From Candidatus Chazhemtobacterium aquaticus (GTDB lineage: Bacteria > Patescibacteriota > Microgenomatia > UBA1400 > Chazhemtobacteraceae), in the NCBI RefSeq assembly GCF_009936135.1, contig NZ_CP047901.1, forward strand, positions 475,643 to 539,642: a stretch of DNA of 64,000 bases. Direction: 5' to 3'. Shown here in pieces: positions 1 to 63,345 of this stretch. The position numbers and the translations under genes were made by a program. The notes beneath the pieces are model-generated. The model saw only the letters and a list, made by a program, of their open reading frames with translations, was not told the origin of the DNA and did not search any database. Position 1 is the stretch's first letter. Each line of letters starts with the position of its first letter.

Positions 1-1142
1 GCGGCCATCCTCTTTTTGCCGCTTACTTAACTGGTCTGGTTCATCTGCTTACCACTCTTGCTCTTTTTCTATTTCTCAAAAAGCATACCAAGCATGATCT
101 TATTGCTCTTGCCTCAAGCTTACTTTATGCTTCCACTCTTCATCGCACGGCTTGGAATGTTATGTTCATTCCCCTCCTCTTTATTCTTTTTCTTAATCTA
201 CTCCTTCGTTCCCGCCAGACCCCCAAGAGCTTCTCTTTGCTTTTGTTTTTGGTCAGCCTAGGTATTCACTTTCACTTTCAGTTTGTTTTACTCGCTCCTT
301 TCTTAGGCATATACTTGTTGCTTAATCGTTCCAAACTTCCCTCGCTTAGGTCCAAAAACCTTGCCCTTTATTTTATTGCCCTTCTCATTCCTCTCTTGCC
401 CCTAATCGCCTTTGATCTACGTCATGATTTCATTAACTCCCGCTCTTTCTTAAACTTCTTTGGTTCTGCTCTGACCACCTCTTCAAATTTGCCTTACTTA
501 CAGTTACTTCGTTTCTCTGCCCGCAACATTATCCGCGAAACCTCTCTCTATACCCCCCTCCCGCTTAATCTCGACTATCTCTTCCTCCCTTTAGCTTACA
601 TTGGTTCCTTAATTGTGGTTTTAAGGAAGAAAAGATCTCTTCTTCCCTTGGCTCTTTTCCCAGTAATCTCTCTCTTTGCTCTTTCTCTTTACTCACCCCC
701 CACCTGGCCCGAGTACTATCACCTCCTTGCCGTTCTCTCCTTCATTGTTCTTGTTTCATATTTGATTGCTTCATCTCCTCATCTCATCAAGTCTCTTTAC
801 TTCGTTTTTGTTCTCATTGCTCTGGTCACCTCTCTTCAATATCTCCACACATATACCAACTCAGACGGTTACGACTCTCGCCAGGCTGTCATTAAGTATA
901 TTCTTGACACCTCCTCACCTCTTCAACCCAATATCCGTTACCACTTCCCTCCCGGTCAGGGCTTAGGTTTTACCCCCATCAGAGACTATCTCTCCACCCA
1001 GTATGACTTAACTGATCAGTACTCAAATACTCAATTCGACGTCTTTTTTACTTCCTCTCCTCCTCCTGCTCTTCCTACTTCCACCGACCAAGTTAGTTTC
1101 GGCGTTTACACCGTTTCGCTTTCCTCGACAGAAGAGAGATAG
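1..1142 (+). CDS. 5'-truncated polytopic membrane protein, GT-C-fold glycosyltransferase-like. The frame is open from the window start (nt 3); the ATG at 162 is internal.
   Basis: Frame 0 has no stop codon from nt 3 to 1142. The product is hydrophobic and multi-TM (e.g. RTAWNVMFIPLLFILFL). It sits next to other GT-C genes. Function is inferred from context. Confidence 0.45.
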   Translation, partial: GHPLFAAYLTGLVHLLTTLALFLFLKKHTKHDLIALASSLLYASTLHRTAWNVMFIPLLFILFLNLLLRSRQTPKSFSLLLFLVSLGIHFHFQFVLLAPFLGIYLLLNRSKLPSLRSKNLALYFIALLIPLLPLIAFDLRHDFINSRSFLNFFGSALTTSSNLPYLQLLRFSARNIIRETSLYTPLPLNLDYLFLPLAYIGSLIVVLRKKRSLLPLALFPVISLFALSLYSPPTWPEYYHLLAVLSFIVLVSYLIASSPHLIKSLYFVFVLIALVTSLQYLHTYTNSDGYDSRQAVIKYILDTSSPLQPNIRYHFPPGQGLGFTPIRDYLSTQYDLTDQYSNTQFDVFFTSSPPPALPTSTDQVSFGVYTVSLSSTEER

Positions 1143-1158
1143 AAAAGACTATAGTTAT

Positions 1159-1827
1159 ATGCCCAATAAACACATCCAAGATATTAATAAAAAGCTACAG
1201 CAAAACAACTGGTCAAGAGATAATCCTCAGTCTTCCAAAGAGATTGTCAAATTTTTGATAACATCATCCAACATCTTTTCAAACATTCCTGGCTACATTA
1301 GTGTTTTAAGGTCAATTTCACAAAGTCTAAATGATACGGCCGCTTTACGTTGGATAAATCATTTTTCATCAATCAGATCTGCCTATTTCTTACAGAGCAA
1401 AAACATTAACGTTTCTGCATTTGAAAAGAAAAGCGGAAATAAAAAAGTCGACTTAGAACTGAACAACAAAACTCTATGCGAAGTAAAGTCCTTTGAACCA
1501 ATCATGAGCAGATCTAACAGTGCTCTTCAAAATGTGGAATACGTCATGAATAATTTTCTAAAAAACAAACTGATGCCAGCATTTAATGATCAAAGGGCTG
1601 ACTTGGTAATAATTGATGATATCTTTTCTGACAATTCAAAAAATTATCAACTTCTTAATTATTTCCTATCATTCATTAATGATCCTGCAACAGAGCGATA
1701 CGGAACAATTAATTCAATTCTTGGTAAATATCTTTCGAGAATTATTGTGGTTAGCTTTACTCAGTCAATAGTTAAAAACCCCACACTACGATTCGTCGGA
1801 GATCAATGGGAAAAACTCTTGAAATAA
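1159..1827 (+). CDS. Hypothetical soluble protein, AT-rich orphan.
   Basis: Intact 222-aa ORF with no recognisable motif. GC is markedly lower than the neighbours, which suggests horizontal acquisition. Confidence 0.4.
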   Translation: MPNKHIQDINKKLQQNNWSRDNPQSSKEIVKFLITSSNIFSNIPGYISVLRSISQSLNDTAALRWINHFSSIRSAYFLQSKNINVSAFEKKSGNKKVDLELNNKTLCEVKSFEPIMSRSNSALQNVEYVMNNFLKNKLMPAFNDQRADLVIIDDIFSDNSKNYQLLNYFLSFINDPATERYGTINSILGKYLSRIIVVSFTQSIVKNPTLRFVGDQWEKLLK

Positions 1828-1830
1828 CTA

Positions 1831-4049: not shown

Positions 4050-4943
4050 ATGAAACCAACCATCGACATCATCATCCCTAGCTTCAAAGGCAAGAAGTTA
4101 CTTCAAAGGCACTTACCTGATGTACTCAAACACTCTCCTGATTGCGGCATCATTGTCATCAATGATGGTCCCGATGATGGGACTGTAGAGTACCTAAACA
4201 AGCATTTTCCCAAAATTAAATACCTGCAAAATTCAAAGAATCTAGGTTTCCCCAAAACCATCAATCGGGGAGTAGCTGCCTCTAAAGCTGACTATGTTGT
4301 ATTAATGAACAACGACGTCTCACCTCAAAAAGGATATCTCACCTCTGCTCTTAAGATTTTAGATGATCCCAAAGTCTTTGCCGTTACCTTTAATGAACAG
4401 CAATCCTCCTGGCCAAAAGTTGTCTGGCAGAATGGCAAGATCACTTTTACCAGAGGCCAAGACAAAAACAAGGCCCGCTACTCTGCCTGGGCCAGTGGTG
4501 GCAGCTCCATCATCAAACGCTCTCTCTGGAACAAGCTTGGTGGATTTAATCCTCTTTACTCACCCGGTTACTGGGAAGATATTGATCTAGGTTGGCGGGC
4601 TTGGAAACTGGGTTTCCGCATTGTCTGGGATCCTGACTCCCACGTCATCCATCAGCATGAGTCTACCTTCAAGACTCTGCCTCAAAACAAACTCAATCTC
4701 CTAAAACAAAGAAACGAGCTTTTGTATCACTGGCAGACCATCACCGACTCCAATCTGGTTTTCTCTCACCTTAAGTTCTTACTCACCCACACTCTCGCCC
4801 ATCCGGGTTACATAAAGGTCATATTGGCAGCTCTTCTACTTACTCCTCAGGTAACCAAAAACTATATCAAGCTAAGCAGGCAAGCCAAGGTAACTGATCG
4901 TCATATCCTAAAAACAGTTAACACTCCCTACTCGCGTTCGTAG
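4050..4943 (+). CDS. Glycosyltransferase family 2.
   Basis: N-terminal GT-A signature IIIPSFKGKKLLQRHLP...GIIVINDGPDDGT...NLGFPKTINRGV...VVLMNNDV (DxD-like). Confidence 0.75.
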   Translation: MKPTIDIIIPSFKGKKLLQRHLPDVLKHSPDCGIIVINDGPDDGTVEYLNKHFPKIKYLQNSKNLGFPKTINRGVAASKADYVVLMNNDVSPQKGYLTSALKILDDPKVFAVTFNEQQSSWPKVVWQNGKITFTRGQDKNKARYSAWASGGSSIIKRSLWNKLGGFNPLYSPGYWEDIDLGWRAWKLGFRIVWDPDSHVIHQHESTFKTLPQNKLNLLKQRNELLYHWQTITDSNLVFSHLKFLLTHTLAHPGYIKVILAALLLTPQVTKNYIKLSRQAKVTDRHILKTVNTPYSRS

Positions 4944-6349: not shown

Positions 6350-7162
6350 ATGGATCTCTCCATCATCATCATCACTTACAACTCAAGACAACACATCACT
6401 CCTTTGCTTAACTCAATTAAAAAATCACCCGATCGTCTCAAGAAAGAAATCATTGTTGTTGACAACGCCTCGCGAGATGACTCTGCTGATCTAGCCTCAA
6501 AACATCCATTAAAACCCAAAGTCATTCGCTCCAAGATCAATCAGGGCTTCTCCAAGGCCGTCAATCAGGCAATCAAAGCTTCATCAGGTCAACATCTCCT
6601 CCTGCTCAACCCTGACACGCGCTTAGTGGGCAACTGTTTAACATATCTTCACGACTTTGCTTCAAAAACCTCGCCCCTAGGCGCTGTCTCTCCACGTCTG
6701 CTTGGTCTTAATGGCCGCCCCCAGCCTTCCGTTTTTCGCTTTCCCACTATTATCAATGCCATCCGTCACTACTTCTTTAATTGCCAAAACTGCTTTGGCA
6801 AATACCTGCCACCCAACAAAACCACCAAAGTAGATGTTGCCGTTATGGCTGCCATGCTCATACCCCGTTCTACTATAGATACCGTTGGTGTTCTTGACGA
6901 GAGATTCTTCCTTTACTATGAAGATATTGAGTTTTGCAGACGACTCAAAAAACACCGTCTGCCGCTCTATTACCTTCCCCAGGCTAAAGTTAAACATGCC
7001 CACGGAGCATCAGGCCACTTCCGCTCTCATCTAGACAGCCCCTTACTTAAATCAGCCCAAATCTACCATGGTCGAGTTTACTCTACCCTGCTTAATCTCA
7101 CTCTCTTGCTTGGTCAGAAATGGCAAAAGTTCATCCGTCACCCCCTTCCTAAACTTGGCTAA
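6350..7162 (+). CDS. Glycosyltransferase family 2.
   Basis: LSIIIITYNSRQHI...IIVVDNASRDDS...KINQGFSKAVNQAI...LLLLNPDT. Confidence 0.75.
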   Translation: MDLSIIIITYNSRQHITPLLNSIKKSPDRLKKEIIVVDNASRDDSADLASKHPLKPKVIRSKINQGFSKAVNQAIKASSGQHLLLLNPDTRLVGNCLTYLHDFASKTSPLGAVSPRLLGLNGRPQPSVFRFPTIINAIRHYFFNCQNCFGKYLPPNKTTKVDVAVMAAMLIPRSTIDTVGVLDERFFLYYEDIEFCRRLKKHRLPLYYLPQAKVKHAHGASGHFRSHLDSPLLKSAQIYHGRVYSTLLNLTLLLGQKWQKFIRHPLPKLG

Positions 7163-7509: not shown

Positions 7510-8736
7510 GTGAAATTAAAACTTCCTCGCTTAGTCATCTTTTCCATCGTTATTGGTATTCTGCTCCGTCTCATTTTTGCTCTCACCACCTATCACGGTG
7601 ATCTGGCTGCCTTGGTTCTAGCCGGTGACTCTCTGGCGGTTAAACACCAGTTCATCAACTTCTACGAATCGGTTTTCACCATTGGCACTCAGGGTGAGCT
7701 CAAGCTCCCCGACCACCAGATGACCTTCATCTACCAACCCTTAGCCTACTTCATCCCCGGTCTTATCTACCTTCCCTTTGCCGGTGTCTTAAAAGGCTTA
7801 GTCGATGGTTTGCTTCACATCAATCCCTATTTACTGGCAGGCAAATCTCTCTTCTTCCCTCTCCTTATATACAAGCTCCCCCTTATTCTCGCTGACCTAG
7901 GCACTCTCTTCCTGTTGCCTAAATTCTTTACCAAGAAGAAAGATCAACATCTCTCCCTCATCCTCTGGTCGCTTAATCCCCTCGCTATTTACGTCTCTTC
8001 CATGGTCGGCCAGGTTGACGCCATCCTTACCTCCTTCCTGGTTGCCGGACTCCTTGCTTTCAAGAAAGATCGCCTCTACCTCTCCATTTTCTTCTTTACT
8101 CTTTCCGCCTTAGTCAAACCCATTGGTTTGGTTCTTCTTCCTGCCGTTGCCCTTTACCACTACTCGCTTCATCGCCGATTGCTGGATGTCGTCAAACTAG
8201 TTTCCTCAGGACTCCTCACCTATCTTCTGGTCATCGCCCCCTTCCTACCCTCTTTAGCTTATCGCCAGTACACTCTCTTTGCTGAACACATAAACAAGAC
8301 CCTCTTTGCCGGTATTGCCATCTCACCCGGCACCCTCATTCCCTGGTTTTTCATCACCTATGCTGCCATCCTGGTTCTCTTGCTTAATCGCCGTATCTCA
8401 CCTTTCTACGCTCTTGGTGCCGCTTTGTTAGCCAGTCTCTCCTTTACCCATTTCCACCCTCAGTGGTTAATCTGGCTCACTCCTTGGCTCGTTATATACC
8501 TAGTTACCACTAGGGATTGGCTAACTCCTTTGGTTACCCTTTTTTCGTGGTTGGTTATTCTTTTCTCTTTTGAACCAAGCCTAACCTATCATCTTTTCTT
8601 CGGTCTTAATCTAAATCCCATTGCTCTTTCCTCCTCGCTTGCTTCCTTCACTCCTCATTTAATTTCCCTGTCCCGGGCCTGGATTGCTGCCCTTCTGCTC
8701 CATTTCACTCTACAAAAGCCAGCTCATGAAACTTAA
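7510..8736 (+). CDS. Polytopic membrane protein, GT-C-fold glycosyltransferase-like. The start is placed at the in-frame GTG at 7510; the ORF-track start at 7384 lies inside the GC-rich element.
   Basis: At least 10 TM segments. The first loop has an acidic motif (YHGDLAALVLAGDS). A TACAAT box at 7498-7503 lies 6 nt upstream of the GTG, which would fit a leaderless mRNA. The start is uncertain. Confidence 0.45.
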   Translation: MKLKLPRLVIFSIVIGILLRLIFALTTYHGDLAALVLAGDSLAVKHQFINFYESVFTIGTQGELKLPDHQMTFIYQPLAYFIPGLIYLPFAGVLKGLVDGLLHINPYLLAGKSLFFPLLIYKLPLILADLGTLFLLPKFFTKKKDQHLSLILWSLNPLAIYVSSMVGQVDAILTSFLVAGLLAFKKDRLYLSIFFFTLSALVKPIGLVLLPAVALYHYSLHRRLLDVVKLVSSGLLTYLLVIAPFLPSLAYRQYTLFAEHINKTLFAGIAISPGTLIPWFFITYAAILVLLLNRRISPFYALGAALLASLSFTHFHPQWLIWLTPWLVIYLVTTRDWLTPLVTLFSWLVILFSFEPSLTYHLFFGLNLNPIALSSSLASFTPHLISLSRAWIAALLLHFTLQKPAHET

Positions 8737-10456
8737 AAACAAATCTCTCCTTGCCCTGCTTATCCTTACCCTTCTCGGGTTTATTCTCCGCTTTACCAAT
8801 CTTGACCAAAACCCTCCTGCTCTTAACTGGGATGAGGTCAGTCATGGCTACAACGCCTTCTCTATCCTAAAAACCGGTAAGGATGAGTGGGGTGTTGCCT
8901 TCCCCTTAATTTTCCGTGCCTTTGGTGATTACAAACTCCCTTTATACATCTACCTCACTGTTATTCCAGTCGCCCTCTTTGGCCTTAACGCCATTTCAGT
9001 AAGGTTAGTCTCGGTCCTAGCTGGCACCCTGGCTATTCCCGGCATCTACTTGCTTACCCGTCAGCTTTTTCCCAAGGTAGCTTTAAATTTTAAATTCAAA
9101 AAGCGATCTGTTTCTTTGTCATTACCTTTTCTTGCAGCTTTCTTTTTAAGCTTACTTCCTTGGCACCTCTTTATATCCCGCCCTGCTCTTGAAGCCAATC
9201 TAGGCCTGACTCTTTTCCTCTTTGCCGTTTACTTCCTGCTTAAATTCAAAGACAATCCCAAGCATTTACTCATCTCCTCCATCTTTTTCTCTCTCACTCT
9301 TCACACCTACAACACCTACCGAGTCTTGACCCCTCTCTTTCTCTTTCTCTACTTCCTACCTAAAGTTAAACCCTCATCTATCAAGCGTTTCTTAAATAAA
9401 CAACAACCTCGCCTGCTTTGGTTGTCACTAGCCGTATTTTTTCTTTCCTTCTCTCTAGTTATTTCCCAGACTCTTAGTGGCACTGGCACTGCCCGTTACC
9501 AGAAACTAGCTATCCTCAATGACCAGACAGTTTTCCAGATAGGGGAGGCTCGTCAAAACAGCTCTCTGCCGCCAGTGTTGGCTCGACTTCGTCACAACCG
9601 TCCTCTTTTCTTTGTAGAGCAGTTTGCCCACAACTATCTTAACTACTTCACTCCCCAGTTCCTCTATCAATCCAACGGAGCCCAGACCCAGTTCGCTATT
9701 CCTTACAAGAATCTGCTTACCCTTAATCTAACCATCTTGGCTGTATTGGGTTTCTTTGTCGTAATTAAACATATTAAGAACTCTTCCCATCGTCTGGTTT
9801 TACTTCTACTCGCCTTAAGTCCGGCCGCCGCTGCCATTACTGCCAGTCCGCCGCAGGCCCTGCGTCCTACTCCATTAATCATTCCCCTGACCTTGTTAGC
9901 CGCTCTTGGATTCTTTGTAGTAGTCAATCTTTTTTCCTCTCGCAACTGGGCCAAGTCAGCCGTTGCCTTTATTCTGCTTGTCAGTTTCATGTCCTCATCC
10001 TTTAGCTATCTCTCTACCTACTGGAACTCATATCGATTTGAGTACTCCACCTCCTGGCAATATGGTCATCAACAGCTTTTCGAGTATCTTGGGAAAAATC
10101 AGGATCAGTACGACCGCATTTTCATCACCAAGTATCACGGTGAGCCCCACATCTTTTATGCTTTCTTTATGAAGCTTAACCCTCATCTGCTTCAGCCCGG
10201 TGGTGACAGTTTGCGCTTTAAGCAATCAGATTGGTACTGGACTGATCGTATTGGCAAAGTCTATTTCGTCAACGACTGGGACATTCCCTACTTCTCTCCC
10301 GCCCCTGCCATTCCGCTTGAGTCAGGTGATCTTATACCCACCTCCAATGCCTTGCTTATCACCTCAGTTGAGCACTTGCCATCAAACACAGAGATTGTTG
10401 AGTTAATCGAGGACTTATCTGGTAACATCGCCTTTGTAGTTGCCAGATTTAAGTAA
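8726..10456 (+). CDS. GT39/PMT/ArnT-like GT-C membrane glycosyltransferase (paralog 1).
   Basis: Motifs LRFTNLDQNPPALNWDEVSHGYNAFSIL (DE motif in the first loop) and FRAFGDYKLPLY. Multi-TM with a C-terminal soluble domain containing WQYGHQQL...YDRIFI. ATG at 8726 (MKLKNKSL) overlaps the upstream stop by 11 nt. Confidence 0.7.
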   Translation: MKLKNKSLLALLILTLLGFILRFTNLDQNPPALNWDEVSHGYNAFSILKTGKDEWGVAFPLIFRAFGDYKLPLYIYLTVIPVALFGLNAISVRLVSVLAGTLAIPGIYLLTRQLFPKVALNFKFKKRSVSLSLPFLAAFFLSLLPWHLFISRPALEANLGLTLFLFAVYFLLKFKDNPKHLLISSIFFSLTLHTYNTYRVLTPLFLFLYFLPKVKPSSIKRFLNKQQPRLLWLSLAVFFLSFSLVISQTLSGTGTARYQKLAILNDQTVFQIGEARQNSSLPPVLARLRHNRPLFFVEQFAHNYLNYFTPQFLYQSNGAQTQFAIPYKNLLTLNLTILAVLGFFVVIKHIKNSSHRLVLLLLALSPAAAAITASPPQALRPTPLIIPLTLLAALGFFVVVNLFSSRNWAKSAVAFILLVSFMSSSFSYLSTYWNSYRFEYSTSWQYGHQQLFEYLGKNQDQYDRIFITKYHGEPHIFYAFFMKLNPHLLQPGGDSLRFKQSDWYWTDRIGKVYFVNDWDIPYFSPAPAIPLESGDLIPTSNALLITSVEHLPSNTEIVELIEDLSGNIAFVVARFK

Positions 10457-10461
10457 ACAGA

Positions 10462-25113: not shown

Positions 25114-25117
25114 ATTT

Positions 25118-26697: not shown

Positions 26698-26706
26698 TTT
26701 CCAAAT

Positions 26707-39425: not shown

Positions 39426-39476
39426 ATCATACCTTTTAATAACACTAATTTTTCTTGTTAGGATATAATCCAACCC

Positions 39477-42931: not shown

Positions 42932-42932
42932 T

Positions 42933-43700: not shown

Positions 43701-43708
43701 TCAAAGCC

Positions 43709-49183: not shown

Positions 49184-49193
49184 CCATATATAT

Positions 49194-50300: not shown

Positions 50301-50320
50301 TTACTGTTAGAATACCAGAT

Positions 50321-53822: not shown

Positions 53823-55246
53823 AACACAAAATCTTACTCATCCTTATCCTTCTACTTGCCCTTATCTTACGTTGGTACAAAATCGATAATCCTTTAGCTG
53901 ACTGGCACTCCTGGCGTCAGGCCGATACTGCCTCTGTTTCTCAGGAATACCTAAAAAACGGTATTGATTTGCTTCACCCTCGCTTCCACGATCTTTCCTC
54001 CTTCCCTTCTGATATTGATAACCCACAAGGCTATCGCATGGCCGAGTTTCCCCTCTACAATGCCATCCACGCTTTTATAGCCGGCAACTTTACTACCTTT
54101 GATCTTGATCAATGGGGCAGAGTCCTCTCCATTGTCTACTCCCTTATCTCCATCATCTTTCTCTACGCCCTAGTCTCACTCCTAACTGATCGTTACACCG
54201 GTCTGTTATCAGCCTTCTTTATGGCCGTTCTCCCTTTCAGTATTTACTACTCGAGGGTTGTTCTACCCGATCCCTTAATGATTACCCTTACTCTGGCTGG
54301 TTCATATTACTTTGTTAAAGCTACCCGTCAGCCCAACCTCGCCCATTTCTTCCTATCAAGCACCCTGCTTGCCTTTGCCTTACTGGTCAAGCCCTATGCC
54401 GTCTTTTACTTTCTCCCTTTAGTCTGGTTAGGTCTTATTACCTGGGGTTTCAAGCTTTTGCTTAAACCCTCCACCTACATCTTCCTTATCATTGTTTTTG
54501 CTCCCTTAATTCTCTGGCGTCTCTGGATTCAACAGTTCCCTGAAGGCATCCCAAGCAATCTCTGGCTCTACAACTACATGAACATCCGCCTTCGTCCCGC
54601 CTGGTGGCGCTGGCTCTTTTACGAACGGCTCTCTCTCTTGATTCTCGGCGCTTTTGGCTTACTGCCTTTCCTCACTGGTCTAGTCACCAAACTCAAACCC
54701 AAAGAACACTATTTCTTCCATCTTTGGTTGGTTGGCATCTTTGCCTACCTAGTTATATTCGCTGGTGGCAATGTCACTCACGACTACTACCAAGCCATCA
54801 CCATTCCCGTTCTGGCCGTCTTCTTAGCTAAAGGCACCCTTTTTCTAGTTAAACCTAACCCATCTTTAATCTGGCCCTTTACACCTCTGCTTGTTTCAGC
54901 CTGTATCGCTCTCTCCCTTGCTTTTTCCTGGTATCAAATCAAAGGTTACTACCAAGTCAACAACTGGAGTATTGTTGAGGCTGGTATCAGAGCTGACAAA
55001 CTTCTCCCTGCCGATGCCAAGGTCATTGCTCCCTACAATGGCGACACTGCTTTCTTATATCAAACCAGACGTTCTGGCTGGCCCATCTCCTTCTGGGGTA
55101 TTCCATACCTGCTTGAGCGAGGTGCTACCCACTACGTCTCGGTCAACTTTGATGACCAAACCAACCAGGTCATCAGTGATCCCAACAACACCATTCTTGA
55201 ACAAACTGACCGTTATGTAATTGTTGAATTAAACCAAAACAAATGA
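53819..55246 (+). CDS. GT-C-fold polytopic membrane glycosyltransferase-like protein.
   Basis: ATG at 53819 (MKHKILLIL) overlaps the upstream stop (ATGA). First-loop motif DNPLADWHSWRQADTA. 11 or more TM. Confidence 0.5.
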   Translation: MKHKILLILILLLALILRWYKIDNPLADWHSWRQADTASVSQEYLKNGIDLLHPRFHDLSSFPSDIDNPQGYRMAEFPLYNAIHAFIAGNFTTFDLDQWGRVLSIVYSLISIIFLYALVSLLTDRYTGLLSAFFMAVLPFSIYYSRVVLPDPLMITLTLAGSYYFVKATRQPNLAHFFLSSTLLAFALLVKPYAVFYFLPLVWLGLITWGFKLLLKPSTYIFLIIVFAPLILWRLWIQQFPEGIPSNLWLYNYMNIRLRPAWWRWLFYERLSLLILGAFGLLPFLTGLVTKLKPKEHYFFHLWLVGIFAYLVIFAGGNVTHDYYQAITIPVLAVFLAKGTLFLVKPNPSLIWPFTPLLVSACIALSLAFSWYQIKGYYQVNNWSIVEAGIRADKLLPADAKVIAPYNGDTAFLYQTRRSGWPISFWGIPYLLERGATHYVSVNFDDQTNQVISDPNNTILEQTDRYVIVELNQNK

Positions 55247-56454
55247 AAATCTTAATGCTCACCCCATATCTTCCATATCCAGACTCTTCTGGTGGACAGA
55301 TCCGCACTCAGAATTTACTGAAACACCTCAAGAAAAAACATGACATCACCCTAGTTTCTTTAATTAAAGACCCGACCGAAACACAATATATCCCAATTTT
55401 AGAAAAAAACTTTTGCAAAAAAGTTAAGGTCTGTCTGCGTTCCCGTAAGCCTTTTACGCTAAAAAACATCATCAAAACCGGTTTTTCGCTTCAGCCATTC
55501 TTAGTTGTTCGCAATTTTTCCAAGCAAGCCCAGCAAGCCATTGCCTACGAGCTAGCCAACAATCATTACGACCTCATCCATGTCGAGACTTTTTACGCCA
55601 TGCCTCACATTCCCTCCGGAACAAAAGTTCCAGTCGTATTGGTTGATCAGACCATTGAGTTCAAGGTCTACCAGCACTATGTTAAGGAAGTTGCCCCGCT
55701 ACCTCTACGACCTCTTCTAAACATTGATGTTCTAAAATTAAAGCACTGGGAACGCTTCTACTGGCGTCGGGCCAATCGGGTTATTGCTGTGTCCGACAAA
55801 GACAAGGAAGAAATCTTAAGACTAGAACCAAATCTTCGCGTTGATATTGTTCCCAATGGAGTCAATCTTGATTTCTTCAAACAAAAAACATCCTGGAAAA
55901 CCAGCAAACCGACCATCCTCTTTGTCGGTAATTTCCATTGGCTTCAAAATATTGAAGCAGCCCAGACTTTAATCACCAAGATCCTGCCTTTAGTTAAGAA
56001 AAAACTCCCCCAAGCTCGTGTCTGGATTGTTGGTCAGCACCAACCCGATTCGCTAAAAGCCTTGGCCTCCGACTCTGTCTTAATCTCAGATATTGCCGAA
56101 GATGATGCCGACAGTATTGTCAAAGCCTACAAAGAGGCTGATATTTTTTGTACTCCCATTAAAGGCCCAGGTGGCACCAGATTGAAAAATCTAGCTGCTA
56201 TGGCCAGTCGTCTTCCCATTGTCAGTTCATCTGTTGGTATGGCTGGCTTAGGTATTAATCCAGGCGAACATGCCATTATTACCGACTCACCCAAATCCAT
56301 GGCTACTGCCATCATTGATCTAGTAAACAACCCCAAAAAAGCCGAGTCACTCACTCTCGCTTCTCGCCGTTATGTCGAGCAAAACTTTAGTTATCAGGTC
56401 ATTGCTGATAAACTAAGTCGCATCTATCAGCAAGTATCCAGCCAGACACCATGA
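55243..56454 (+). CDS. Glycosyltransferase family 4.
   Basis: N-terminal MKILMLTPYLPYPDSSGGQIRTQNLLKHL and a C-terminal GT-B domain. Confidence 0.7.
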   Translation: MKILMLTPYLPYPDSSGGQIRTQNLLKHLKKKHDITLVSLIKDPTETQYIPILEKNFCKKVKVCLRSRKPFTLKNIIKTGFSLQPFLVVRNFSKQAQQAIAYELANNHYDLIHVETFYAMPHIPSGTKVPVVLVDQTIEFKVYQHYVKEVAPLPLRPLLNIDVLKLKHWERFYWRRANRVIAVSDKDKEEILRLEPNLRVDIVPNGVNLDFFKQKTSWKTSKPTILFVGNFHWLQNIEAAQTLITKILPLVKKKLPQARVWIVGQHQPDSLKALASDSVLISDIAEDDADSIVKAYKEADIFCTPIKGPGGTRLKNLAAMASRLPIVSSSVGMAGLGINPGEHAIITDSPKSMATAIIDLVNNPKKAESLTLASRRYVEQNFSYQVIADKLSRIYQQVSSQTP

Positions 56455-57350
56455 GCCTGTCTATCATCATCGTCTCCTACAACACCAAGCAGCTGCTATC
56501 AGACTGCCTCAAATCAGTCTATAAATCTCAGAGTCCCAAAGATGGTCTCGAGGTTATAGTTGTTGATAATAACTCGCCTGATGACTCAGTCCAAATGGTC
56601 GAGGCGGATTTTCCCCAAGTTAAATTAATTGCCAATCAAGACAACAAAGGTTTTGCTGCTGCCAACAATCAGGCTGCCGCCATCGCCCAAGGCAAATACT
56701 TGCTCTTTCTAAACTCAGACACCAAGCTTACTCCTCACGCCTTAGTCAAACCTTTAAAATATCTCCGCACTCACCAGGATGTTGGTGCCATCACCGTCAA
56801 GCTACTTTTACCCACTGGCCAGATCGATCTTGATAATCACCGAGGTTTCCCCACTCCCTGGACTGCTCTTACCAAGATGTTAAGACTAAATACCCTCTTT
56901 CCCAATAGTCGTCTCTTTAACAACTACTACCAAAGCTACAAAGGCTACGACCGTATTCACTCCATCGATGTGGCCGCTGGTTCCTACATCATGCTCTCCA
57001 AAAAACTTTTCGACAAAATTGGCGGTTGGGACGAGAGCTACTTCTTTTACGGAGAAGATATCGACCTCTGCTACCGCATTCGCCAAACTGGCAAAAAAAT
57101 CATCTACTATCCCAAAGTCACTACCATCCATTACAAAGGTGCCAGCTCTGGCTTAAGAAAAGAATCAGCCAACAAAGCTCGTCCGCCCAAGGCCACTCGC
57201 ATCAAGGTGGCCAAGGCCTCGACCCAGGCCATGAAAATTTTCTATCGCAAGTTCTATCAAAACCAGTACCCCTTCTTCATCACCTACCCCATCCTTCTAG
57301 CCATCACCCTGCTTGGCTGGCTTAGAGTTATCAAGCACCAACTAACTTAA
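56451..57350 (+). CDS. Glycosyltransferase family 2.
   Basis: LSIIIVSYNTKQLLSDCLKSV...VIVVDNNSPDDS...NKGFAAANNQA...LLFLNSDT. Confidence 0.75.
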   Translation: MSLSIIIVSYNTKQLLSDCLKSVYKSQSPKDGLEVIVVDNNSPDDSVQMVEADFPQVKLIANQDNKGFAAANNQAAAIAQGKYLLFLNSDTKLTPHALVKPLKYLRTHQDVGAITVKLLLPTGQIDLDNHRGFPTPWTALTKMLRLNTLFPNSRLFNNYYQSYKGYDRIHSIDVAAGSYIMLSKKLFDKIGGWDESYFFYGEDIDLCYRIRQTGKKIIYYPKVTTIHYKGASSGLRKESANKARPPKATRIKVAKASTQAMKIFYRKFYQNQYPFFITYPILLAITLLGWLRVIKHQLT

Positions 57351-57357
57351 GTAGTTT

Positions 57358-58464
57358 ATGAAAATCGGTATCGACGCCCGCCTCTATGGCCCCAAACACA
57401 CCGGCATCGGCCGTTATGTCCAGGAGCTGGTTAGTCAGCTCATCCCTCTCTCTCCCAAAGACCAGTTTATTATTTTCGGTGATCCCAAACTCCTCTCTGA
57501 TCTAGAGTCCTTCTCCAACGTCACCATCGTTCCTCTCAAGACCCCTATCTACTCGCTTGCCGAGCAACTCATCAATCCCTTCATTTTCTACTCCCATCAT
57601 CTTGATCTGCTCCACGTTCCCCACTTTAACGCTCCCTTGTTGTACTTCAAAAAAACTATCATCACCATCCACGACCTAATCAAACATCTCTCCACTGGCC
57701 CCGACACTACCACCTTGCCTTCCTGGCAGTATCGCATCAAGCACCTAGCCTATCGCTTCCTTATCAGTCGCAATCTTAAAACCTCTACCGCTATCATCAC
57801 TCCTTCTCACTACTGGAAAAACTATCTCATCACTCAATTAAAGGTGCCCTCAGCCAAAATCTTTGTCACCTACGAAGCGGTTAACGCTGGTCTCAAACCA
57901 GTCGATACTCCAGACAAAACCTTGCTTAAAAAATACTCCCTCAAAAAGCCCTATATCATCTACACCGGCAATCTCTACCCCCACAAAAACGTCAATCTCC
58001 TCATTAACGCCGTCAATTCTTTTAACGCCAATCACTCTCTTAACCTTAAACTCGGTATCATTGCCGGCCGTTCTGCTTTTCACAAACGGGTTACTAAAAG
58101 CGATGCCATTGTCCCTCTAGGCTACGTACCCGACCAGGACTTACCCCACATATATGCACAAGCCCTTGCCTTAGTTCAGCCATCGTTAATCGAGGGCTTT
58201 GGTTTAACTGGTCTTGAAGCCATGAAATTAAAAACCCCAGTTGTCAGTAGCAACGCCACCTGTTTACCCGAGGTTTATGGCCAGGCCGCCCTCTACTTTG
58301 ACCCATACGACCAGCAGGATCTGGAAGAAAAAATTTCCTGGATTGTTAAGGAACATGACTTAAGACAGCGCTTGGTTGATAGGGGACTGTCCCATGTCAC
58401 TCAGTTCAGCTGGACCAAGACTGCTCGTCAGACTCTCAAGGCCTACAAATATGCGTTCAAGTAA
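57358..58464 (+). CDS. Glycosyltransferase family 4.
   Basis: VQPSLIEGFGLTGLEAMKLKTPVVSSNATCLPEVYG. Confidence 0.75.
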   Translation: MKIGIDARLYGPKHTGIGRYVQELVSQLIPLSPKDQFIIFGDPKLLSDLESFSNVTIVPLKTPIYSLAEQLINPFIFYSHHLDLLHVPHFNAPLLYFKKTIITIHDLIKHLSTGPDTTTLPSWQYRIKHLAYRFLISRNLKTSTAIITPSHYWKNYLITQLKVPSAKIFVTYEAVNAGLKPVDTPDKTLLKKYSLKKPYIIYTGNLYPHKNVNLLINAVNSFNANHSLNLKLGIIAGRSAFHKRVTKSDAIVPLGYVPDQDLPHIYAQALALVQPSLIEGFGLTGLEAMKLKTPVVSSNATCLPEVYGQAALYFDPYDQQDLEEKISWIVKEHDLRQRLVDRGLSHVTQFSWTKTARQTLKAYKYAFK

Positions 58465-59599
58465 TCTAAACGACTTAAAAATTGCCTTAGTATACGATCG
58501 AGTTAACAAGTTTGGCGGGGCCGAGCGAGTCATTCAACAACTCCATCAACTCTTTCCCAAAGCTCCTCTCTATACCCTTGTTTACGACCCAGCAAAGGCT
58601 ACCTGGGCCTCCGGTATGGATGTTCGTCCCAGTTTCCTTAATCTTCCATTCCTGCGTTCCCATCATGAACTCTTAGCCCCTCTTGCCCCCCTAGCTTTTG
58701 AGACCTTTAACTTTAATGATTATAATTTGGTCATCTCCATCACCAGCGAATCAGCCAAAGCCGTTATCACCAAGCCTAATACTCTGCATGTCTGTTACTG
58801 CCTTACTCCCACCCGCTATCTCTGGTCGGGACGGCAAGAGTATTTAACACACCCCGGTTTGGGTATCTTATCTCCTCTAGTGAAAAGATATTTGCACAAG
58901 AACATAAAAAAATATCAAAAAAACGATCTTTACCTTTCTCATCGACCTGATCACTACATCGCCATCTCCCAAGAGGTTCAATCAAGGATAAGACGCTACT
59001 ATCACCGACCCTCATCCGTTATCTATCCACCCATTAACTACGACTATTTCTCCAGAGCACCTAGATTAAAACGGACTCACTATCTCTTCGTCAGTCGCTT
59101 AGTTCCTTACAAAAAAGCCGATTTGGTCATCAACGCTTTTGCCCATCCCAGCCTTCAATCATCCAACTTAATCGTGGTTGGCTCAGGTTCTCAAAGCTCA
59201 TCACTTAAACGCCAAGCTACTCACAACGTCAAGTTCCTCTCCTCTGTCTCTGACCAACAATTAAGGCGTCTTTATGCTTCCGCCAAAGCCTTGATTTTTC
59301 CTTCCCATGAGGACTTTGGACTTGTCCCCCTTGAGGCTCAGGCCTGCGGCACGCCGGTTCTTGCCTACAACCAGGGCGGTGCCCAAGAAACTGTCATTGA
59401 GGGCAAAACAGGCCTCTTCTTTACCTCTCAGACAATCAAAGCTATCATCAATGCCATCACTAAATTCGAAAAGCAAACCACCATATCCTCCGTTCTCTGC
59501 CGCAAAAACGCCGCTCGTTTCTCGCCCCTTGTCTTTCAACATCAATTATCTGCTACATTAAAAATACTATGGCAAAAGCACCAGCAAACCTATATGTAG
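58451..59599 (+). CDS. Glycosyltransferase family 4.
   Basis: ATG at 58451 (MRSSNLNDLKIALVYD). FPSHEDFGLVPLEAQACGTPVLAYNQGGAQETV. Confidence 0.7.
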   Translation: MRSSNLNDLKIALVYDRVNKFGGAERVIQQLHQLFPKAPLYTLVYDPAKATWASGMDVRPSFLNLPFLRSHHELLAPLAPLAFETFNFNDYNLVISITSESAKAVITKPNTLHVCYCLTPTRYLWSGRQEYLTHPGLGILSPLVKRYLHKNIKKYQKNDLYLSHRPDHYIAISQEVQSRIRRYYHRPSSVIYPPINYDYFSRAPRLKRTHYLFVSRLVPYKKADLVINAFAHPSLQSSNLIVVGSGSQSSSLKRQATHNVKFLSSVSDQQLRRLYASAKALIFPSHEDFGLVPLEAQACGTPVLAYNQGGAQETVIEGKTGLFFTSQTIKAIINAITKFEKQTTISSVLCRKNAARFSPLVFQHQLSATLKILWQKHQQTYM

Positions 59600-60669
59600 T
59601 TATCATCGCCGGCGGTGTTGGCACCCGTCTCTGGCCCAAATCAAGGAAGGCTCTGCCCAAGCAATTCTTCCACCTTGATGGCGATTTATCCTTAAGTCAA
59701 TTAACCTACCAAAGGCTAAAAGGCTTTATACCCGATGATCACATTTACGTAGTTGCTCCTGCCCATTACCGATCTCAGATTCAAAAGAATTTACCCCAGA
59801 TCCCTAAACAAAACCGGCTTTTAGAGCCGGTTAAACAAGGTACTACTGCCGCCAACTTGTTAAGTGCCTCGGTTATCTACCATCGTGACCCCAATGCTAT
59901 CGTTCACCTCCTAGTTGCCGACGACTATCTTCAAGACATTCCCCGTTTCCATCGCATGTCTAGTCTAGCTGCCCAGCAAGCCGCTGATGACTCGGTCATA
60001 GTTTTCGGCGTCAAGCCCCGTTCACCTCACACCGGCTTTGGCTATATCAAAACCGGTAAAAAGCTCTCTACTCATGGGGATATTCAGGTTTTCAAAGCCC
60101 TAAAATTTGTTGAGAAACCCGACGAAAGAAGAGCTCGTCGTTACGTTAGCTCCAGTAATTACTACTGGCATGGTTCTGGTTTTGCTGCCCCAGTTCAGCT
60201 CATTCTTGATACCCTTTCGGCCAGTCCTCAGATCAACTCGATTGTCACCAAGATTAACCAGCACGTTGCTTCTGGTAAGAGCCTTAACCGGCCCGCTTTC
60301 CTTAAGCTATACAAACAGATCACCAAGGACCCCATCGAGACAACCTTTCTAGAGAAAGTTAAATCCACCAAGATGATTACTCTGGAGGATACCTGGAATG
60401 ATGTTGGCAGCTGGGCGCAGGTTTATGAGATCTTTCCCAAAGATGCTCAGCGCAATGTTATCCTAGGCAATCCCAAGAATGTCGTCACCCGAAACTCCTT
60501 CCACAATCTCATCTTCGCCAGTGATCGCCTCATCGCTATCACCGACATGGAGGGCATGGTTATAGTTGATACTGGTGACGCTCTTCTGGCCTGCCCCATG
60601 GTTAATGCCCAGAATGTTAAAGCTTTAGTCGAAATTCTAAAATCATTAAAACTAGACAAATTAATTTAA
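59569..60669 (+). CDS. manC: Mannose-1-phosphate guanylyltransferase (GDP-mannose pyrophosphorylase), short form without PMI domain.
   Basis: LYVVIIAGGVGTRLWPKSRKALPKQF nucleotidyltransferase motif. Length and domain order match ManC/CpsB. Confidence 0.8.
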   Translation: MAKAPANLYVVIIAGGVGTRLWPKSRKALPKQFFHLDGDLSLSQLTYQRLKGFIPDDHIYVVAPAHYRSQIQKNLPQIPKQNRLLEPVKQGTTAANLLSASVIYHRDPNAIVHLLVADDYLQDIPRFHRMSSLAAQQAADDSVIVFGVKPRSPHTGFGYIKTGKKLSTHGDIQVFKALKFVEKPDERRARRYVSSSNYYWHGSGFAAPVQLILDTLSASPQINSIVTKINQHVASGKSLNRPAFLKLYKQITKDPIETTFLEKVKSTKMITLEDTWNDVGSWAQVYEIFPKDAQRNVILGNPKNVVTRNSFHNLIFASDRLIAITDMEGMVIVDTGDALLACPMVNAQNVKALVEILKSLKLDKLI

Positions 60670-60679
60670 AAAAACACTC

Positions 60680-61306
60680 ATGTTCTACGATCTAGCCAAA
60701 CGCTTACTTGATCTACTCGCCGCCCTCACTCTCATTGTCCTCTTCGTCCCCGTTTGGATCATTGTGCCACTCTTAATCAAGTTTGACTCAGCAGGTCCCA
60801 TCTTCTTTCTTCAGAAGCGTCTTGGTAAAAATGGCCGGGTCTTTAAGATCATCAAATTTCGCACCATGCGTACCGACGCCGAGGAATACTGGAAGAATCA
60901 CCCCAAACTCTACCAGAAGTTCAAGAAACAAAGCTGGAAGCTTACCCTAGATGAAGATCCTCGTGTTACCAAGTTAGGCCGGGTTCTTCGCCAAACCTCG
61001 ATAGACGAGTTTCCCCAGGTCTTCAACGTTCTACTTGGTAGTATGAGTTTAATCGGTCCCCGTCCCATCCGTGATATCGAAGCCAAAGACGCTATCAGGC
61101 GGTATGGTAAGAAGATTAAAGAGCAGATTGATACAAGTCTAACCGTCAAACCAGGTATCTCCGGCCCCTGGCAAGTCTCTGGTCGCAACGACATTCCCTG
61201 GGACAAGCGTCTAAAAATTGACGCCCAATATGCTAGTCGTCGCAATCTTTTAGATGACCTGCGCATCATTCTCAAGACCCCTCTGGCCATGATCAGCAAA
61301 TGGTAG
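60680..61306 (+). CDS. Polyprenyl-phosphate hexose-1-phosphate transferase (small bacterial sugar transferase, PglC/WbaP-C-terminal type); initiating enzyme.
   Basis: Single N-terminal TM plus [55 protein letters not shown]...PRP...GPWQVSGRN. Confidence 0.8.
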
Positions 61307-61341
61307 TCTTCCATTTCTATATTTTGGTAAACTAAATCGAT

Positions 61342-63345
61342 ATGCAACTCAAGAAGCTTGATCTAAGTGAAGGTGTTTCTGCTGCCGAGGATGTTAAACC
61401 TGTATCAGATCCAGACGTATCATCAACTGATCCGGTCAAACCTGCTCCTGACACATCAAAATCTGAACCAACTGATCCCAAAACACTCAAGACTCGTCGT
61501 AGCCTTAAAAAACCCTTAATTATTCTCTCAGTTATACTCCTGCTTCTTCTTATAACCACGGCCGCCCTAGCTATTCCTGCCTATCTCATGATGACTCCCG
61601 CCAAGCTTACCTTAAGCTCTGCTCAAAATGCCGCCGCCGCTCTTCAAAGTCAGGACCTGGCTGCCACCCAATCAGAGTTAGTTGCTGCCAAGGATCACCT
61701 AGTCAAAACTCAACAACAGTATCGCTATCTCTCCTGGACCAAGTATGTCCCCATCATTCGCAACTACTACCTTGATGGTGAACGAGGCCTACAAGGTGCC
61801 TATCACGCCATCGAAGCTGGTCAATCCCTGGCCGTTGCCATCGAGCCCTATGCCGACCTACTTGGCTTTAAAGTCAGTACTGAGTCGGCTCAACCGGATG
61901 CTACCTCAGCCGAGGAGCGCATTGTTTTCTTGGCCCAGACTCTGGAAGCCATCTCTCCGCAACTAGAACAGGTAGCCAAGGATCTTGACCTGGCTCGTGA
62001 CCAGATCAACCAAATTGATCCCAACCGCTATCCGGTTACCGTTGCCAACAAACCAATTCGCGCCAATGTCAAAAAACTTCAGGAAACCCTCTCTGCAGCC
62101 CATCTGGCTCTAACCGAAGCCAAGCCCTTGATTGCTCTCTTGCCTGACCTGCTTGGCCAAAACGGCGAAAAAGTATATATGCTTCTTTTCCAAAACGATG
62201 CTGAGCTTCGCCCCACCGGAGGCTTTATGACTGCCTACGCTTATGTCAAGGTTGATCGAGGCAAATTGACCCCGCTTGATTCTTACGATATCTACGATCT
62301 GGATGCTCGCTGGAACAAAATCCTACCCGCCCCCGATCCCATCAAAAAATACCTGCCTCTGGTCAACAACTGGAATCTTCGTGATATGAATCTGAGTCCC
62401 GACTTCAAGGTTAGTATGGAAACCTTTCTAAAACATTACCAAGAAATTCCCGGGGTCAGACAGATCGATGGTATCATCGCCCTTGATACCCAGGTTCCAG
62501 TAGAATTACTCAAAGTTCTAGGCCCCATCGGCGTTGGCGGCTGGGGAGAGTTCAGTGCTGAAAATGATCCCCGTTGTGATTGTCCGCAGGTTGTATATGC
62601 CCTGGAAAATATCGCCACCAGACCCACCAACTATATCCGTGAAGACAGAAAGGCTGTTTTAGGTCCTTTAATGCATTCCATTATTGCCAATGCCATGGGT
62701 TCGCCCAAATCCACCTGGCCTCAGCTACTTAATGTTGGCCTCAATGCCTTAAAGGAAAAGCATCTTTTGCTTTACTTCCCGCAGGAGTCTTCTCAAACCT
62801 CAGCCGAGGGCTTTAATGCTGCCGGCCGTATTCGTTCCTTTGAGGGTGATTATCTCCACATCAACGACACCAACTTTGCCGGTGCCAAGTCCAATATGTT
62901 CATCACCCAGACTGTTGAGCAAGACATCACCCTAGACGCCAATGGTTCTGTCACCAAGACCGTCACTATTACTTACGACAACCCTCATCCGCCCAGCAAC
63001 TGTGACCTCGAGACAGCCGGCCTCTGTCTTAACGGAGTTTACCGAGACTGGGTCAGACTTTATGTTCCTAAAGGATCTACCCTAACCGAGGTGGTTGGTT
63101 CTGAAGTAGCTGCCGTCACTAACGAGGACTTAGGTAAAACCGTTTTTGAAGCCTTCTTTACTCTAAGGCCCCAGTCATCCAGCAAATTAGTCTTTACCTA
63201 CCAGCTGCCCGACACTTACTCCACTCCTTTCCCCATGCTCATCCAAAAACAACCTGGCAAACCCAATATCACCCACTCCATTATCTTCAACGGCCAGCCT
63301 GTTGAGTACACCGTTCAGGGTGATCTGGAGATTACCCTTCCATGA
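61342..63345 (+). CDS. DUF4012-domain membrane-anchored protein (polysaccharide-locus associated).
   Basis: N-terminal low-complexity region then a TM, and [29 protein letters not shown] matching the DUF4012 N(A/P)ELRPTGG core. Confidence 0.6.

Follow-up and report, generated by a model that had tools for sequence, protein, structure and literature searches.

What does a bacterium with a genome of about one megabase assemble with some 31 glycosyltransferases encoded side by side, and do they all serve one product? The question is raised by the 64,000-nucleotide stretch analyzed here (contig NZ_CP047901.1, positions 475,643 to 539,642; hereafter the window), which is about 98% coding and carries 57 open reading frames (ORFs). 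A first, sequence-only reading had counted about 31 glycosyltransferases in 63 kb and assigned them to a single assembly line. We scanned every protein of the window with Pfam, calling a family above its gathering score unless stated otherwise, and the count was borne out protein by protein. PF00535 (GT2) was found in 10 proteins (g05, g08, g15, g19, g20, g24, g37, g41, g47 and g51) and PF00534 (GT4, with the Glyco_transf_4 N-domain) in eight (g16, g25, g40, g43, g44, g50, g52 and g53). Another 13 proteins are polytopic membrane enzymes of the GT-C superfamily (g01, g04, g09, g10, g12, g14, g17, g21, g27, g29, g30, g42 and g49). Chance cannot account for 31 glycosyltransferases in a set of 56 genes. 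The accessory genes were also those that had been named: a small phosphoglycosyl transferase (PGT; g55), two Wzx-like flippases (g18 and g35), a Wzy/ligase-like protein (g48), a DUF4012 protein (g56), ManC (g54), Gmd (g34), three methyltransferases (g26, g38 and g39), a hexapeptide acetyltransferase (g45) and a B12-radical SAM enzyme (g22).

The region is a patchwork in which at least three modules can be told apart: A (g09-g21), B (g22-g33) and C (g34-g56). We lean towards reading it as a three-module envelope-glycan region of a Collierbacteria-like bacterium (UBA1400, Microgenomates), whose core would work by the mechanism proposed below. Extracytoplasmic elaboration of a glycan from polyprenyl-phosphate sugars is the function that the gene content appears to support best. 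Known GT-C enzymes take their sugars from polyprenyl-phosphate donors and work at the outer membrane surface of the cell.

GT-C proteins and the conserved core

Single-sequence Pfam searches detected few of the 13 proteins. Only g14, g17, g42 and g49 pass the PMT_2 threshold, and seven of the 13 have no match at E<0.01. In an all-against-all phmmer comparison, g10, g12, g21 and g30 were recognized as paralogues of g14 (E 1e-15 to 1e-81), with g42 further off. Profile comparison with hhalign, which used family alignments from related loci, linked g42 and g49 to the g14 family at 100%, g17 at 96-98% and g01 at 90%. An acidic motif stands right after the first transmembrane (TM) helix in all 13 candidates. 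In the g14 family this motif is D34-E35, invariant across 43 sequences, and its loop probably lies on the extracytoplasmic side, judging from the fold and the charge distribution. The protein superposes on solved GT-C enzymes, and the fold comparison of g14 gave 24.1 for ALG12, 23.1 for AglB, 22.4 for ArnT, 22.1 for STT3B and 21.5 for Pmt4, which places it equidistant from ArnT, STT3/AglB, ALG12 and Pmt4. Transporters of the MFS type surfaced in Foldseek only at a probability of about 0.1. The GT-C assignments had been named beforehand as the point at which the sequence-only reading could be refuted; all 13 hold, by paralogy, profiles and fold.

The 13 proteins span at least four subtypes: PMT_2-like, GT87/PIG-M-like, YfhO/PTPS_related-like and AftD-like. 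The g01 frame is open from base 3, and the complete gene is found on the identical contig L087 at 8599-9984; among its homologues, P0279 and 13 others carry PF13231. In the family alignment of g04, 12 of 15 sequences match PTPS_related, four PMT_2 and three YfhO, and hhalign linked it to the g17 and g49 families at 89-95%. By itself, g09 has no Pfam match at E<0.01 and a weak match to MptA_B_family in a precomputed record. Six of the 14 members of its family match PF09594 (GT87; best 3.5e-8), their profile matches the solved GPI mannosyltransferase 1 at 7.2e-9, and hhalign linked g09 to the g14, g17 and g42 families at 93-96%.

The AftD-like enzyme, g27, has an N-terminal GT-C domain, a large beta-rich extracytoplasmic domain and a C-terminal TM anchor (helix 1131-1160). 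Out of 5.8 billion proteins, a word-indexed search retrieved no more than five close homologues, and an exhaustive search found 3009 remote relatives. Ten of 30 relatives match PF11847 (GT-C_AftD). The family profile matched M. abscessus AftD (6w98/6wbx) with an E of 1.4e-21 over positions 10-561, the GT-C domain. The three best Foldseek matches of the AlphaFold2 model (pLDDT 76.9) were all AftD (2.8e-12), and the soluble part matched CBM16/CBM4-like beta-sandwiches. The single sequence reached only E 0.061 against PF11847, below threshold, with a weak NCBIfam match to MmpA and empty or marginal results in the Protein Data Bank (PDB); the AftD/DUF3367 (PF11847) architecture is seen at the level of the family profile.

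Several other polytopic proteins were tried as additional GT-C enzymes and rejected. Profile comparison gave no link for g13, g28 or g48, nor for the C-terminal polytopic half of a 1023-aa protein encoded upstream of the window. The small protein g11 matches g14-type GT-C enzymes in their middle segment only and lacks the catalytic loop with its DE motif; it could be a subunit with an accessory role or else a remnant that has been conserved. Within the array g11 and g13 flank g12, and in three Collierbacteria loci the g12 orthologue is likewise flanked by a g11-like protein and an unassigned ORF of similar size.

The GT39 and GT83 labels of the sequence-only reading proved too loose for proteins of at least four subfamilies. 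No protein of the window has the MIR domains that, in loop 5, accompany PF02366 in GT39 enzymes; PF02366 itself is above its gathering score only in g49 and marginal in g14. Both the loop and the C-terminal domain of g14 are short, the latter about 120 aa. For GT83, the profile match to ArnT (5ezm) is weak (E 0.014 over 70 residues), and the fold similarity to ArnT is not above that to STT3 or ALG12. Public pipelines already call the g14 family 'GT39' or 'ArnT-like', by weak homology only.

The conservation of the genes around g14 was scored in 80 Microgenomates loci, as 21-kb windows around the g14 orthologue; many of these loci are incomplete. The query of the genome scan was a three-sequence alignment, the alignment of six paralogues being too diverged. 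Each 21-kb locus contained three to seven tandem GT-C paralogues. After this array, the related loci encode in order a g15-like GT2, a g16-like GT4, a 9-TM protein related to g09, a g18-like Wzx and a g19-like GT2. Counterparts of g15 were present in 75 of the 80 loci, of g10 in 74, g16 in 70, g19 in 50, g21 in 40 and g18 in 36. Both g14 and g10 had reciprocal-best orthologues at the same position in all 10 genomes tested; therefore, their duplications would be older than the split of the candidate phyla, and the copies would have become specialised. On gene order and orthology, g09-g21 (about 15 kb) is an ancient unit conserved across Microgenomates. Synteny in related genomes, to which the sequence-only reading had pointed as a check, is found for these genes in the 80 loci, and extends to only that 15 kb of the window. 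Module A comprises the cytoplasmic GT2/GT4 enzymes g15, g16 and g20, the Wzx/MOP flippase g18, the PpgS/ArnC-like g19 and the GT-C enzymes g09, g10, g12, g14, g17 and g21.

With one genome taken per species, relatives of g14 (41-56% identity) were found first in Collierbacteria and then in Woese-, Davies-, Blackburn-, Ames- and Shapirobacteria. These taxa all belong to Microgenomates/OP11 in the candidate phyla radiation (CPR), with complete genomes of 0.6-1.1 Mb, and the earlier suggestion that the locus belongs to a lineage other than the mycobacterial one was right. The records of three array-bearing metagenome-assembled genomes (L009, L010 and L013) and about 35 others are titled 'uncultured Pseudomonadales' or 'Gammaproteobacteria', and one is titled 'Spirochaetia'. 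Their gene content and their 41-56% identity to Collierbacteria/Woesebacteria proteins suggest that these titles are mislabelled or placeholder taxonomy.

The composition of the window bears on its placement as well. The GC skew of the + strand is -0.25, and reaches -0.3 to -0.55 at third codon positions with a sign independent of gene strand; 48 of the 57 genes lie on this C-rich strand. A C/G strand disparity has been described for Collierbacteria, Beckwithbacteria and Ch65, for which unidirectional replication was proposed (Kadnikov et al. 2020, PMC7143001). The skew of the window is this same disparity and therefore gives independent support for the placement in Microgenomates.

Donors, acceptors and the possible product

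The steps that we infer for module A, with their donor, acceptor, order and product, are as follows. The GT2 and GT4 enzymes would build a polyprenyl-linked primer on the cytoplasmic face, and Wzx would flip it. The enzyme g19 would load a sugar, probably mannose from ManC-supplied GDP-mannose, onto polyprenyl phosphate, and each GT-C paralogue would add its own residue or linkage on the outer face. Mycobacterial PIM/LM/LAM synthesis and the assembly of dolichol-linked oligosaccharides follow the same logic. The families GT87/PIG-M are mannosyltransferases that use polyprenyl-phosphate mannose, and by analogy the likeness of g09 to them suggests this donor. The tentative choice of g19 as the only credible polyprenyl-phosphate sugar synthase of the window comes from its NCBIfam matches, to PpgS (5.4e-13, full length) and also to ArnC, AglJ and PgfS, all below cut-off, and from its best PDB match, ArnC at 1.7e-4. 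The Dpm1/GtrB-like enzyme of the sequence-only reading is thus most likely g19, and not g20, which is a GT2 with C-terminal TM helices. The proposed supply of polyprenyl-phosphate sugars is thinly documented: the lone synthase candidate remains below cut-offs and has no GtrA-type flippase beside it.

Several observations weigh against the proposed mechanism and the division into modules. First, g19 scores 49 bits where the curated NCBIfam cut-off is 370, and this one candidate would have to serve 13 GT-C enzymes. None of the 57 proteins matches a small GtrA/EamA-type flippase, the stretches without an assigned gene are at most 284 bp long, and therefore the mechanism offers no route for flipping the polyprenyl-phosphate sugar. 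Second, the core contains no PGT, the sole one of the window being 40 kb away, and neither an LCP-type ligase nor a recognised acceptor protein was found in the window, which has no match to Wzz, GNVR or LytR_cpsA_psr as chain-length regulator or LCP ligase. Third, no reductase or epimerase that would lead from GDP-4-keto-6-deoxymannose to a 6-deoxyhexose end-product could be recognised in the window. Fourth, some of the GT2 enzymes may act on proteins: NCBIfam subtyping of the GT2s gave only sub-threshold, mutually inconsistent best matches, and g15 and g41 match the protein/peptide glycosyltransferases GmaR and SunS about as well as DPMS. Lastly, the module borders come from composition and comparison, not from transcripts.

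These observations lead to the question of the acceptor. It is possible, though not probable, that the locus serves protein glycosylation, with GT-C enzymes that are PMT-like O-mannosyltransferases or STT3/AglB-like oligosaccharyltransferases and have each its own protein or sequon specificity. Together they would coat S-layer, pilus or adhesin proteins of the episymbiont, and the GT2, GT4 and Wzx enzymes would supply the glycans. The Pfam matches to PMT_2 and PMT, the loop-1 DE motif shared with PMTs, and GmaR and SunS as the best solved relatives of g15 and g41 agree with such a function. In addition, the g14 family has a near-invariant AWQYGF motif (g14 residues 438-443, window 14914-14931); in the model it opens the C-terminal soluble domain, behind the last TM helix. 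Oligosaccharyltransferases carry WWDYG in this place, and the two motifs may correspond, which we take as a lead only. However, the MIR domains are missing and the C-terminal domain is small, as noted above, the g14 family has no sequence-level match to an oligosaccharyltransferase or PMT in PDB, and no Ser/Thr-rich or sequon-rich acceptor candidate is encoded in the window. Moreover, enzymes of the GT87, AftD and YfhO types are known from glycolipid and polysaccharide pathways and are not known from protein pathways.

Rather doubtful is a second alternative, that the genes form three-component decoration systems (GT2, flippase and GT-C, like CsbB/GtcA/YfhO or GtrABC) which build no backbone and instead attach sugars one at a time to a wall polymer or lipid that is already there. 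Their multiplication and diversification would help the cells to evade phages or to vary their host range. GT2 and GT-C genes are indeed adjacent repeatedly (g04/g05, g08/g09, g14/g15 and g41/g42). Sister strains carry just upstream a triplet of a small LAB_N membrane protein, a GT2 and a YfhO/PMT_2 protein, and a variable island with a toxin-antitoxin pair is typical of surface-variation regions. Nevertheless, the orthologues of g14 and g10 are conserved in position across candidate phyla and therefore are not fast-turnover decoration genes. A GtrA-like protein is absent from the window, and g19 is alone in resembling a GtrB/ArnC-type synthase.

It is unlikely, in our estimate, that the core is a bacterial counterpart of the lipid-linked-oligosaccharide pathway of the endoplasmic reticulum and archaea, in which a glycan would be begun inside, flipped and lengthened outside by dedicated GT-C enzymes, one step after another, before one member of the array transfers it en bloc to surface proteins. 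The fold of the array enzymes is no further from ALG12/AglB/STT3 than from ArnT. The dolichol pathway (ALG enzymes of GT4/GT2, Rft1/MOP, DPM1/ALG5, ALG3/9/12/6/8/10 and STT3/AglB) matches the core in its parts list, but at the level of sequence no homology links the core to the ALG or STT3 families. If this were true, it would mean a lineage-wide glycoprotein coat on ultra-small episymbionts that mediates host attachment.

Modules B and C and the borders of the region

Module B contains the AftD-like g27, two more GT-C enzymes, a GT2, a GT4, a methyltransferase and radical-SAM tailoring enzymes. Between 26 and 32 kb its GC content is 0.35 and its skew is weaker (about -0.1 over g24-g28), while g22 and g23 have third-position GC skews of -0.17 and +0.15, off the genome strand bias. 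Module B was probably imported and is in part low in GC; both g22/g23 and the g24-g28 island look like recent imports. No tRNA or integrase was found at the island borders. The AbiEii/AbiEi pair (g31/g32) marks a module boundary. The g22/g23 pair, whose reductase is ferredoxin-reductase-like, was found again in nine of the 80 related loci. It may perform sugar C-methylation or another radical tailoring step with its own reductant.

Module C has the content of a conventional heteropolysaccharide locus, with a Bac_transf PGT, a Wzx, a Wzy_C protein, six GT4 and four GT2 enzymes as in the Wzx/Wzy pathway, and two embedded GT-C enzymes (g42 and g49). The DUF4012 protein g56 occupies the place at which one would look for a chain-length regulator. 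The glycan of this module would be primed by the small PGT g55, fed by ManC and Gmd with mannose or 6-deoxyhexose and tailored by methyl and acetyl groups; g42 and g49 might decorate or ligate it outside the cell.

The right border had been set at 63345 by the sequence-only reading, correctly: RecO (RecO_N 2e-22) directly follows g56, and because it is followed in turn by GlyRS and the dcw cell-division cluster this border is real. Position 1, on the other hand, is not the left end of the cluster, since glycan genes carry on upstream for at least 8.8 kb. The upstream stretch (L087 1-8842) encodes a Wzx, the 1023-aa protein, three GT2s, one GT4 and a fragment of a YfhO-like GT-C. The total glycan region is at least 72 kb, and the window is most of it; compared with a complete Collierbacteria genome of 1.09 Mb, 63-72 kb is about 6%. 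The window corresponds to 55,413-119,412 of the metagenome contig SRR6186653_9908 (Logan, 165,481 bp), with no mismatches over the comparable 11.8 kb, and its genes are also present on the NCBI contig DYGF01000003.1, from a metagenome-assembled genome, and in a JGI metagenome. In two strains of the same species (L088 and L089) the upstream stretch is replaced by Fur/ABC transporter genes and the LAB_N, GT2 and YfhO/PMT_2 triplet. In L089, a Fic/RhuM gene sits between g05 and g06.

That all of the roughly 31 transferases work on one linear line towards one giant heteropolymer is very unlikely, although the genes are contiguous, almost entirely coding and mostly co-oriented (48 of 57). The earlier claim of a single locus cannot be kept with at least three modules. 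Two Wzx proteins in the window and a third upstream accompany one Wzy and one PGT; the toxin-antitoxin pair and unrelated genes (g03 transglutaminase-like, g06 HlyD-like, g07 SNase-like and, at the right end, RecO) break up the region; and the low-GC island has a different skew. Only g09-g21 is kept as a unit in other Microgenomates, and the upstream part varies among strains of the same species. The weakest alternative is that the counts are inflated, the polytopic proteins being transporters or products of faulty annotation. It could appeal to the seven proteins without a single-sequence Pfam match but is already refuted by the tests run: fold, profile or paralogy ties each of the 13 to GT-C families, and every ORF is full-length except g01, cut by the window edge alone.

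Of the remaining genes (Table 1), g33 has a domain that recurs (match 1.8e-16) as the N-terminal half of the upstream 1023-aa protein (L087 336-3407); the other half of that fusion is a polytopic domain of about 590 aa, which has homologues in other Microgenomates loci. The small protein g36 contains an internal near-perfect repeat, ATKEDLRKALAPY, in about 2.5 copies. The called start of g49 was taken from the matching record and differs from the TTG start.

Table 1. Features of the window, with positions counted from its first nucleotide (GA, gathering score)
Feature	Position	Strand	Remarks
g01 GT-C, PMT_2-type	1..1142	+	5' end cut by window edge; full protein 461 aa
g03 transglutaminase-like	1831-2349	-	Transglut_core 5e-8; overlaps g04
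g04 GT-C, YfhO/PTPS_related-type	2333-4006	-	PMT_2 6e-5, below GA
g05 GT2	4050..4943	+	PF00535 1.9e-20
g08 GT2	6350..7162	+	PF00535 2e-21
g09 GT-C, GT87/PIG-M-like	7510..8736	+	start of conserved core
g10 GT-C, g14 paralogue	8726..10456	+	tandem array; phmmer 1.5e-81 to g14; PMT_2 sub-threshold alone
g11 small polytopic protein	10462..11238	+	not counted as glycosyltransferase; hhalign 96% to g14 positions 259-356
g12 GT-C, g14 paralogue	11242..12915	+	phmmer 1.5e-57 to g14
g13 small polytopic protein	12921..13601	+	inside array; 9 hydrophobic segments; no family match
g14 GT-C (PMT_2)	13603..15285	+	array reference member
g15 GT2	15290..16144	+	directly after array; PF00535 3e-21
g16 GT4	16135..17202	+	conserved core; PF00534 4e-22
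g17 GT-C (PMT_2)	17218..18699	-	PF13231 6.9e-9, above GA
g18 Wzx/MOP-type flippase	18751..19989	+	core; Polysacc_synt_3 3e-5; paralogue of g35 at 2.9e-12
g19 GT2, candidate polyprenyl-phosphate sugar synthase	19986..20786	+	PpgS/ArnC/AglJ-like
g20 GT2	20783..21781	+	two C-terminal TM helices; PF00535 3.9e-15; MftF/EpsD/AglG-like
g21 GT-C, g14 paralogue	21783..23516	-	phmmer 4e-41 to g14; weak Agl23 match 1.4e-6
g22 B12-binding radical SAM, g23 FAD/NAD(P) reductase	23581..25804	-	Radical_SAM 5.9e-18 and B12-binding; FAD_binding_6, NAD_binding_1
g24 GT2, g25 GT4, g26 methyltransferase	25849..28525	+	low-GC island start; PF00535 1.5e-23, PF00534 4e-19, Methyltransf_23 1e-15
g27 AftD-like GT-C	28628..32113	+	1161 aa
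g28 membrane protein	32126..33205	+	C-terminal IPT/TIG domain (TIG 1.4e-4); no GT-C link
g29 GT-C, remote PMT_2-like	33202..34581	+	hhalign 95.7% g14 family, 93.2% g49 family; ADD motif after TM1
g30 GT-C, g14 paralogue	34578..36203	+	phmmer 4e-21 to g14, 1.6e-26 to g21
g31/g32 AbiEii/AbiEi type IV toxin-antitoxin pair	36234..37522	-	AbiEii 1.1e-19, AbiEi_4 1e-3; not glycan-related
g33 secreted protein	37626..39524	-	about 600 aa; no Pfam match
g34 GDP-mannose 4,6-dehydratase (Gmd)	39477..40502	+	GDP_Man_Dehyd 6.4e-115
g35 Wzx flippase	40527..41768	+	Polysacc_synt_3 4.9e-19, Polysacc_synt 8.9e-17
g36 Lys/Glu-rich protein	41788-42108		106 aa; between Wzx and a GT2
g37 GT2, g38 and g39 methyltransferases, g40 GT4	42083..45540	+	
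g41 GT2, g15 subfamily	45825..46559	+	PF00535 7e-17
g42 GT-C (PMT_2)	46640..48076	+	PF13231 2.6e-7, above GA; hhalign 100% g14 family
g43 GT4, g44 GT4, g45 hexapeptide acetyltransferase	48089..50956	+	
g47 GT2	51563..52453	+	PF00535 2.6e-29
g48 Wzy_C polymerase/ligase-type	52410..53822	+	Wzy_C 3.9e-14
g49 GT-C (PMT_2/PMT)	53819..55246	+	PF13231 1.4e-11 and PF02366 1.2e-7, both above GA
g50 GT4, g51 GT2, g52 GT4, g53 GT4	55243..59599	+	
g54 ManC (mannose-1-phosphate guanylyltransferase)	59569..60669	+	NTP_transferase 7e-33 and ManC_GMP_beta-helix
g55 small PGT (Bac_transf)	60680..61306	+	priming enzyme; PF02397 6.6e-60
g56 DUF4012 protein	61342..63345	+	last cluster gene; DUF4012 1.9e-23

Significance and comparison with known systems

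About 6% of a streamlined genome is devoted to envelope glycosylation, and the order of a 15-kb core has been kept across several candidate phyla. That genomes so streamlined have conserved it to this degree speaks for a surface glycoconjugate that is important and possibly essential, and a cluster so rich in GT-C enzymes points to an elaborate, essentially unstudied sugar coat on these cells. The cells are thought to live attached to hosts, which makes their surface glycans foremost candidates for a part in host recognition and in defence against phages. The coat could also offer concrete targets for capturing uncultured Microgenomates with lectins or antibodies. With more than 3000 homologues of g14, and models of g14 with high confidence, the family forms a large panel of compact GT-C enzymes, diversified by nature, for work on structure and specificity.

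CPR/Patescibacteria have genomes of about 1 Mb and lack most lipid, nucleotide and amino acid biosynthesis (PMC7143001). The same paper mentions in one sentence 29 glycosyltransferases in a sister genome, and we found nothing else specific in the literature on GT-C enzymes or a tandem array in CPR. A 2024 perspective on the biology of Patescibacteria does not discuss envelope glycans (PMC11665869), and another paper covers glycosyl hydrolases only (PMC4381525).

Module C is similar to the Wzx/Wzy loci of O-antigens and capsules, with its PGT, GT2 and GT4 enzymes, Wzx, Wzy_C, sugar-nucleotide genes and acetyl and methyl tailoring. It differs from them in the two embedded GT-C enzymes, the absence of a recognisable chain-length regulator or export component, the DUF4012 gene at its end and the adjoining dcw cluster. 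From ArnT (GT83) and the fungal and actinobacterial PMTs (GT39), the proteins described here are set apart by the marginal ArnT link and the missing MIR domains; lipid A, the acceptor of ArnT, is unexpected in these organisms, which have been described as monoderm-like.

The three-component systems (GtrA/GtrB/GtrX, CsbB/GtcA/YfhO, ArnC/ArnE-F/ArnT and PpgS/Rv3632/Rv3630) also combine a GT2 that loads polyprenyl phosphate with a GT-C enzyme on the outer face. Unlike them, the window has no GtrA-family flippase and one synthase candidate per 13 GT-C enzymes, and its array consists of anciently diverged orthologous groups rather than interchangeable serotype-converting genes.

The analogy drawn by the sequence-only reading with mycobacteria was apt, given the GT87/PIG-M-like g09, the AftD-like g27, the GT4 enzymes, the PpgS/ArnC-like g19 and the GDP-mannose supply. 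In the mycobacterial and corynebacterial machinery for phosphatidylinositol mannosides, lipomannan, lipoarabinomannan and arabinogalactan (PimA/B', Ppm1, PimE/MptA/MptB/MptC, EmbA/B/C and AftA-D), cytoplasmic GT4 and GT2 steps are likewise followed by many GT-C steps outside, with polyprenyl-phosphate sugars as donors. The shared features are the GT87/PIG-M-like and AftD-like subtypes, the GDP-mannose supply and the clustering of GT-C genes, for which embCAB-aftA-aftB is the classic example. The region differs in that its GT-C enzymes are mostly tandem paralogues of the PMT_2 type, not Emb or Mpt proteins. Neither UbiA nor DprE-like (DprE1/2) genes of the decaprenyl-phospho-arabinose pathway were found among the Pfam results for the window proteins, and no enzymes for a phosphatidylinositol anchor were identified. 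It belongs, moreover, to a CPR bacterium with a genome of about 1 Mb and is denser, with 13 GT-C enzymes in 64 kb. We conclude that the enzyme families and their logic are known, whereas their dosage and a conserved tandem array in a lineage of minimal genomes are unexpected.

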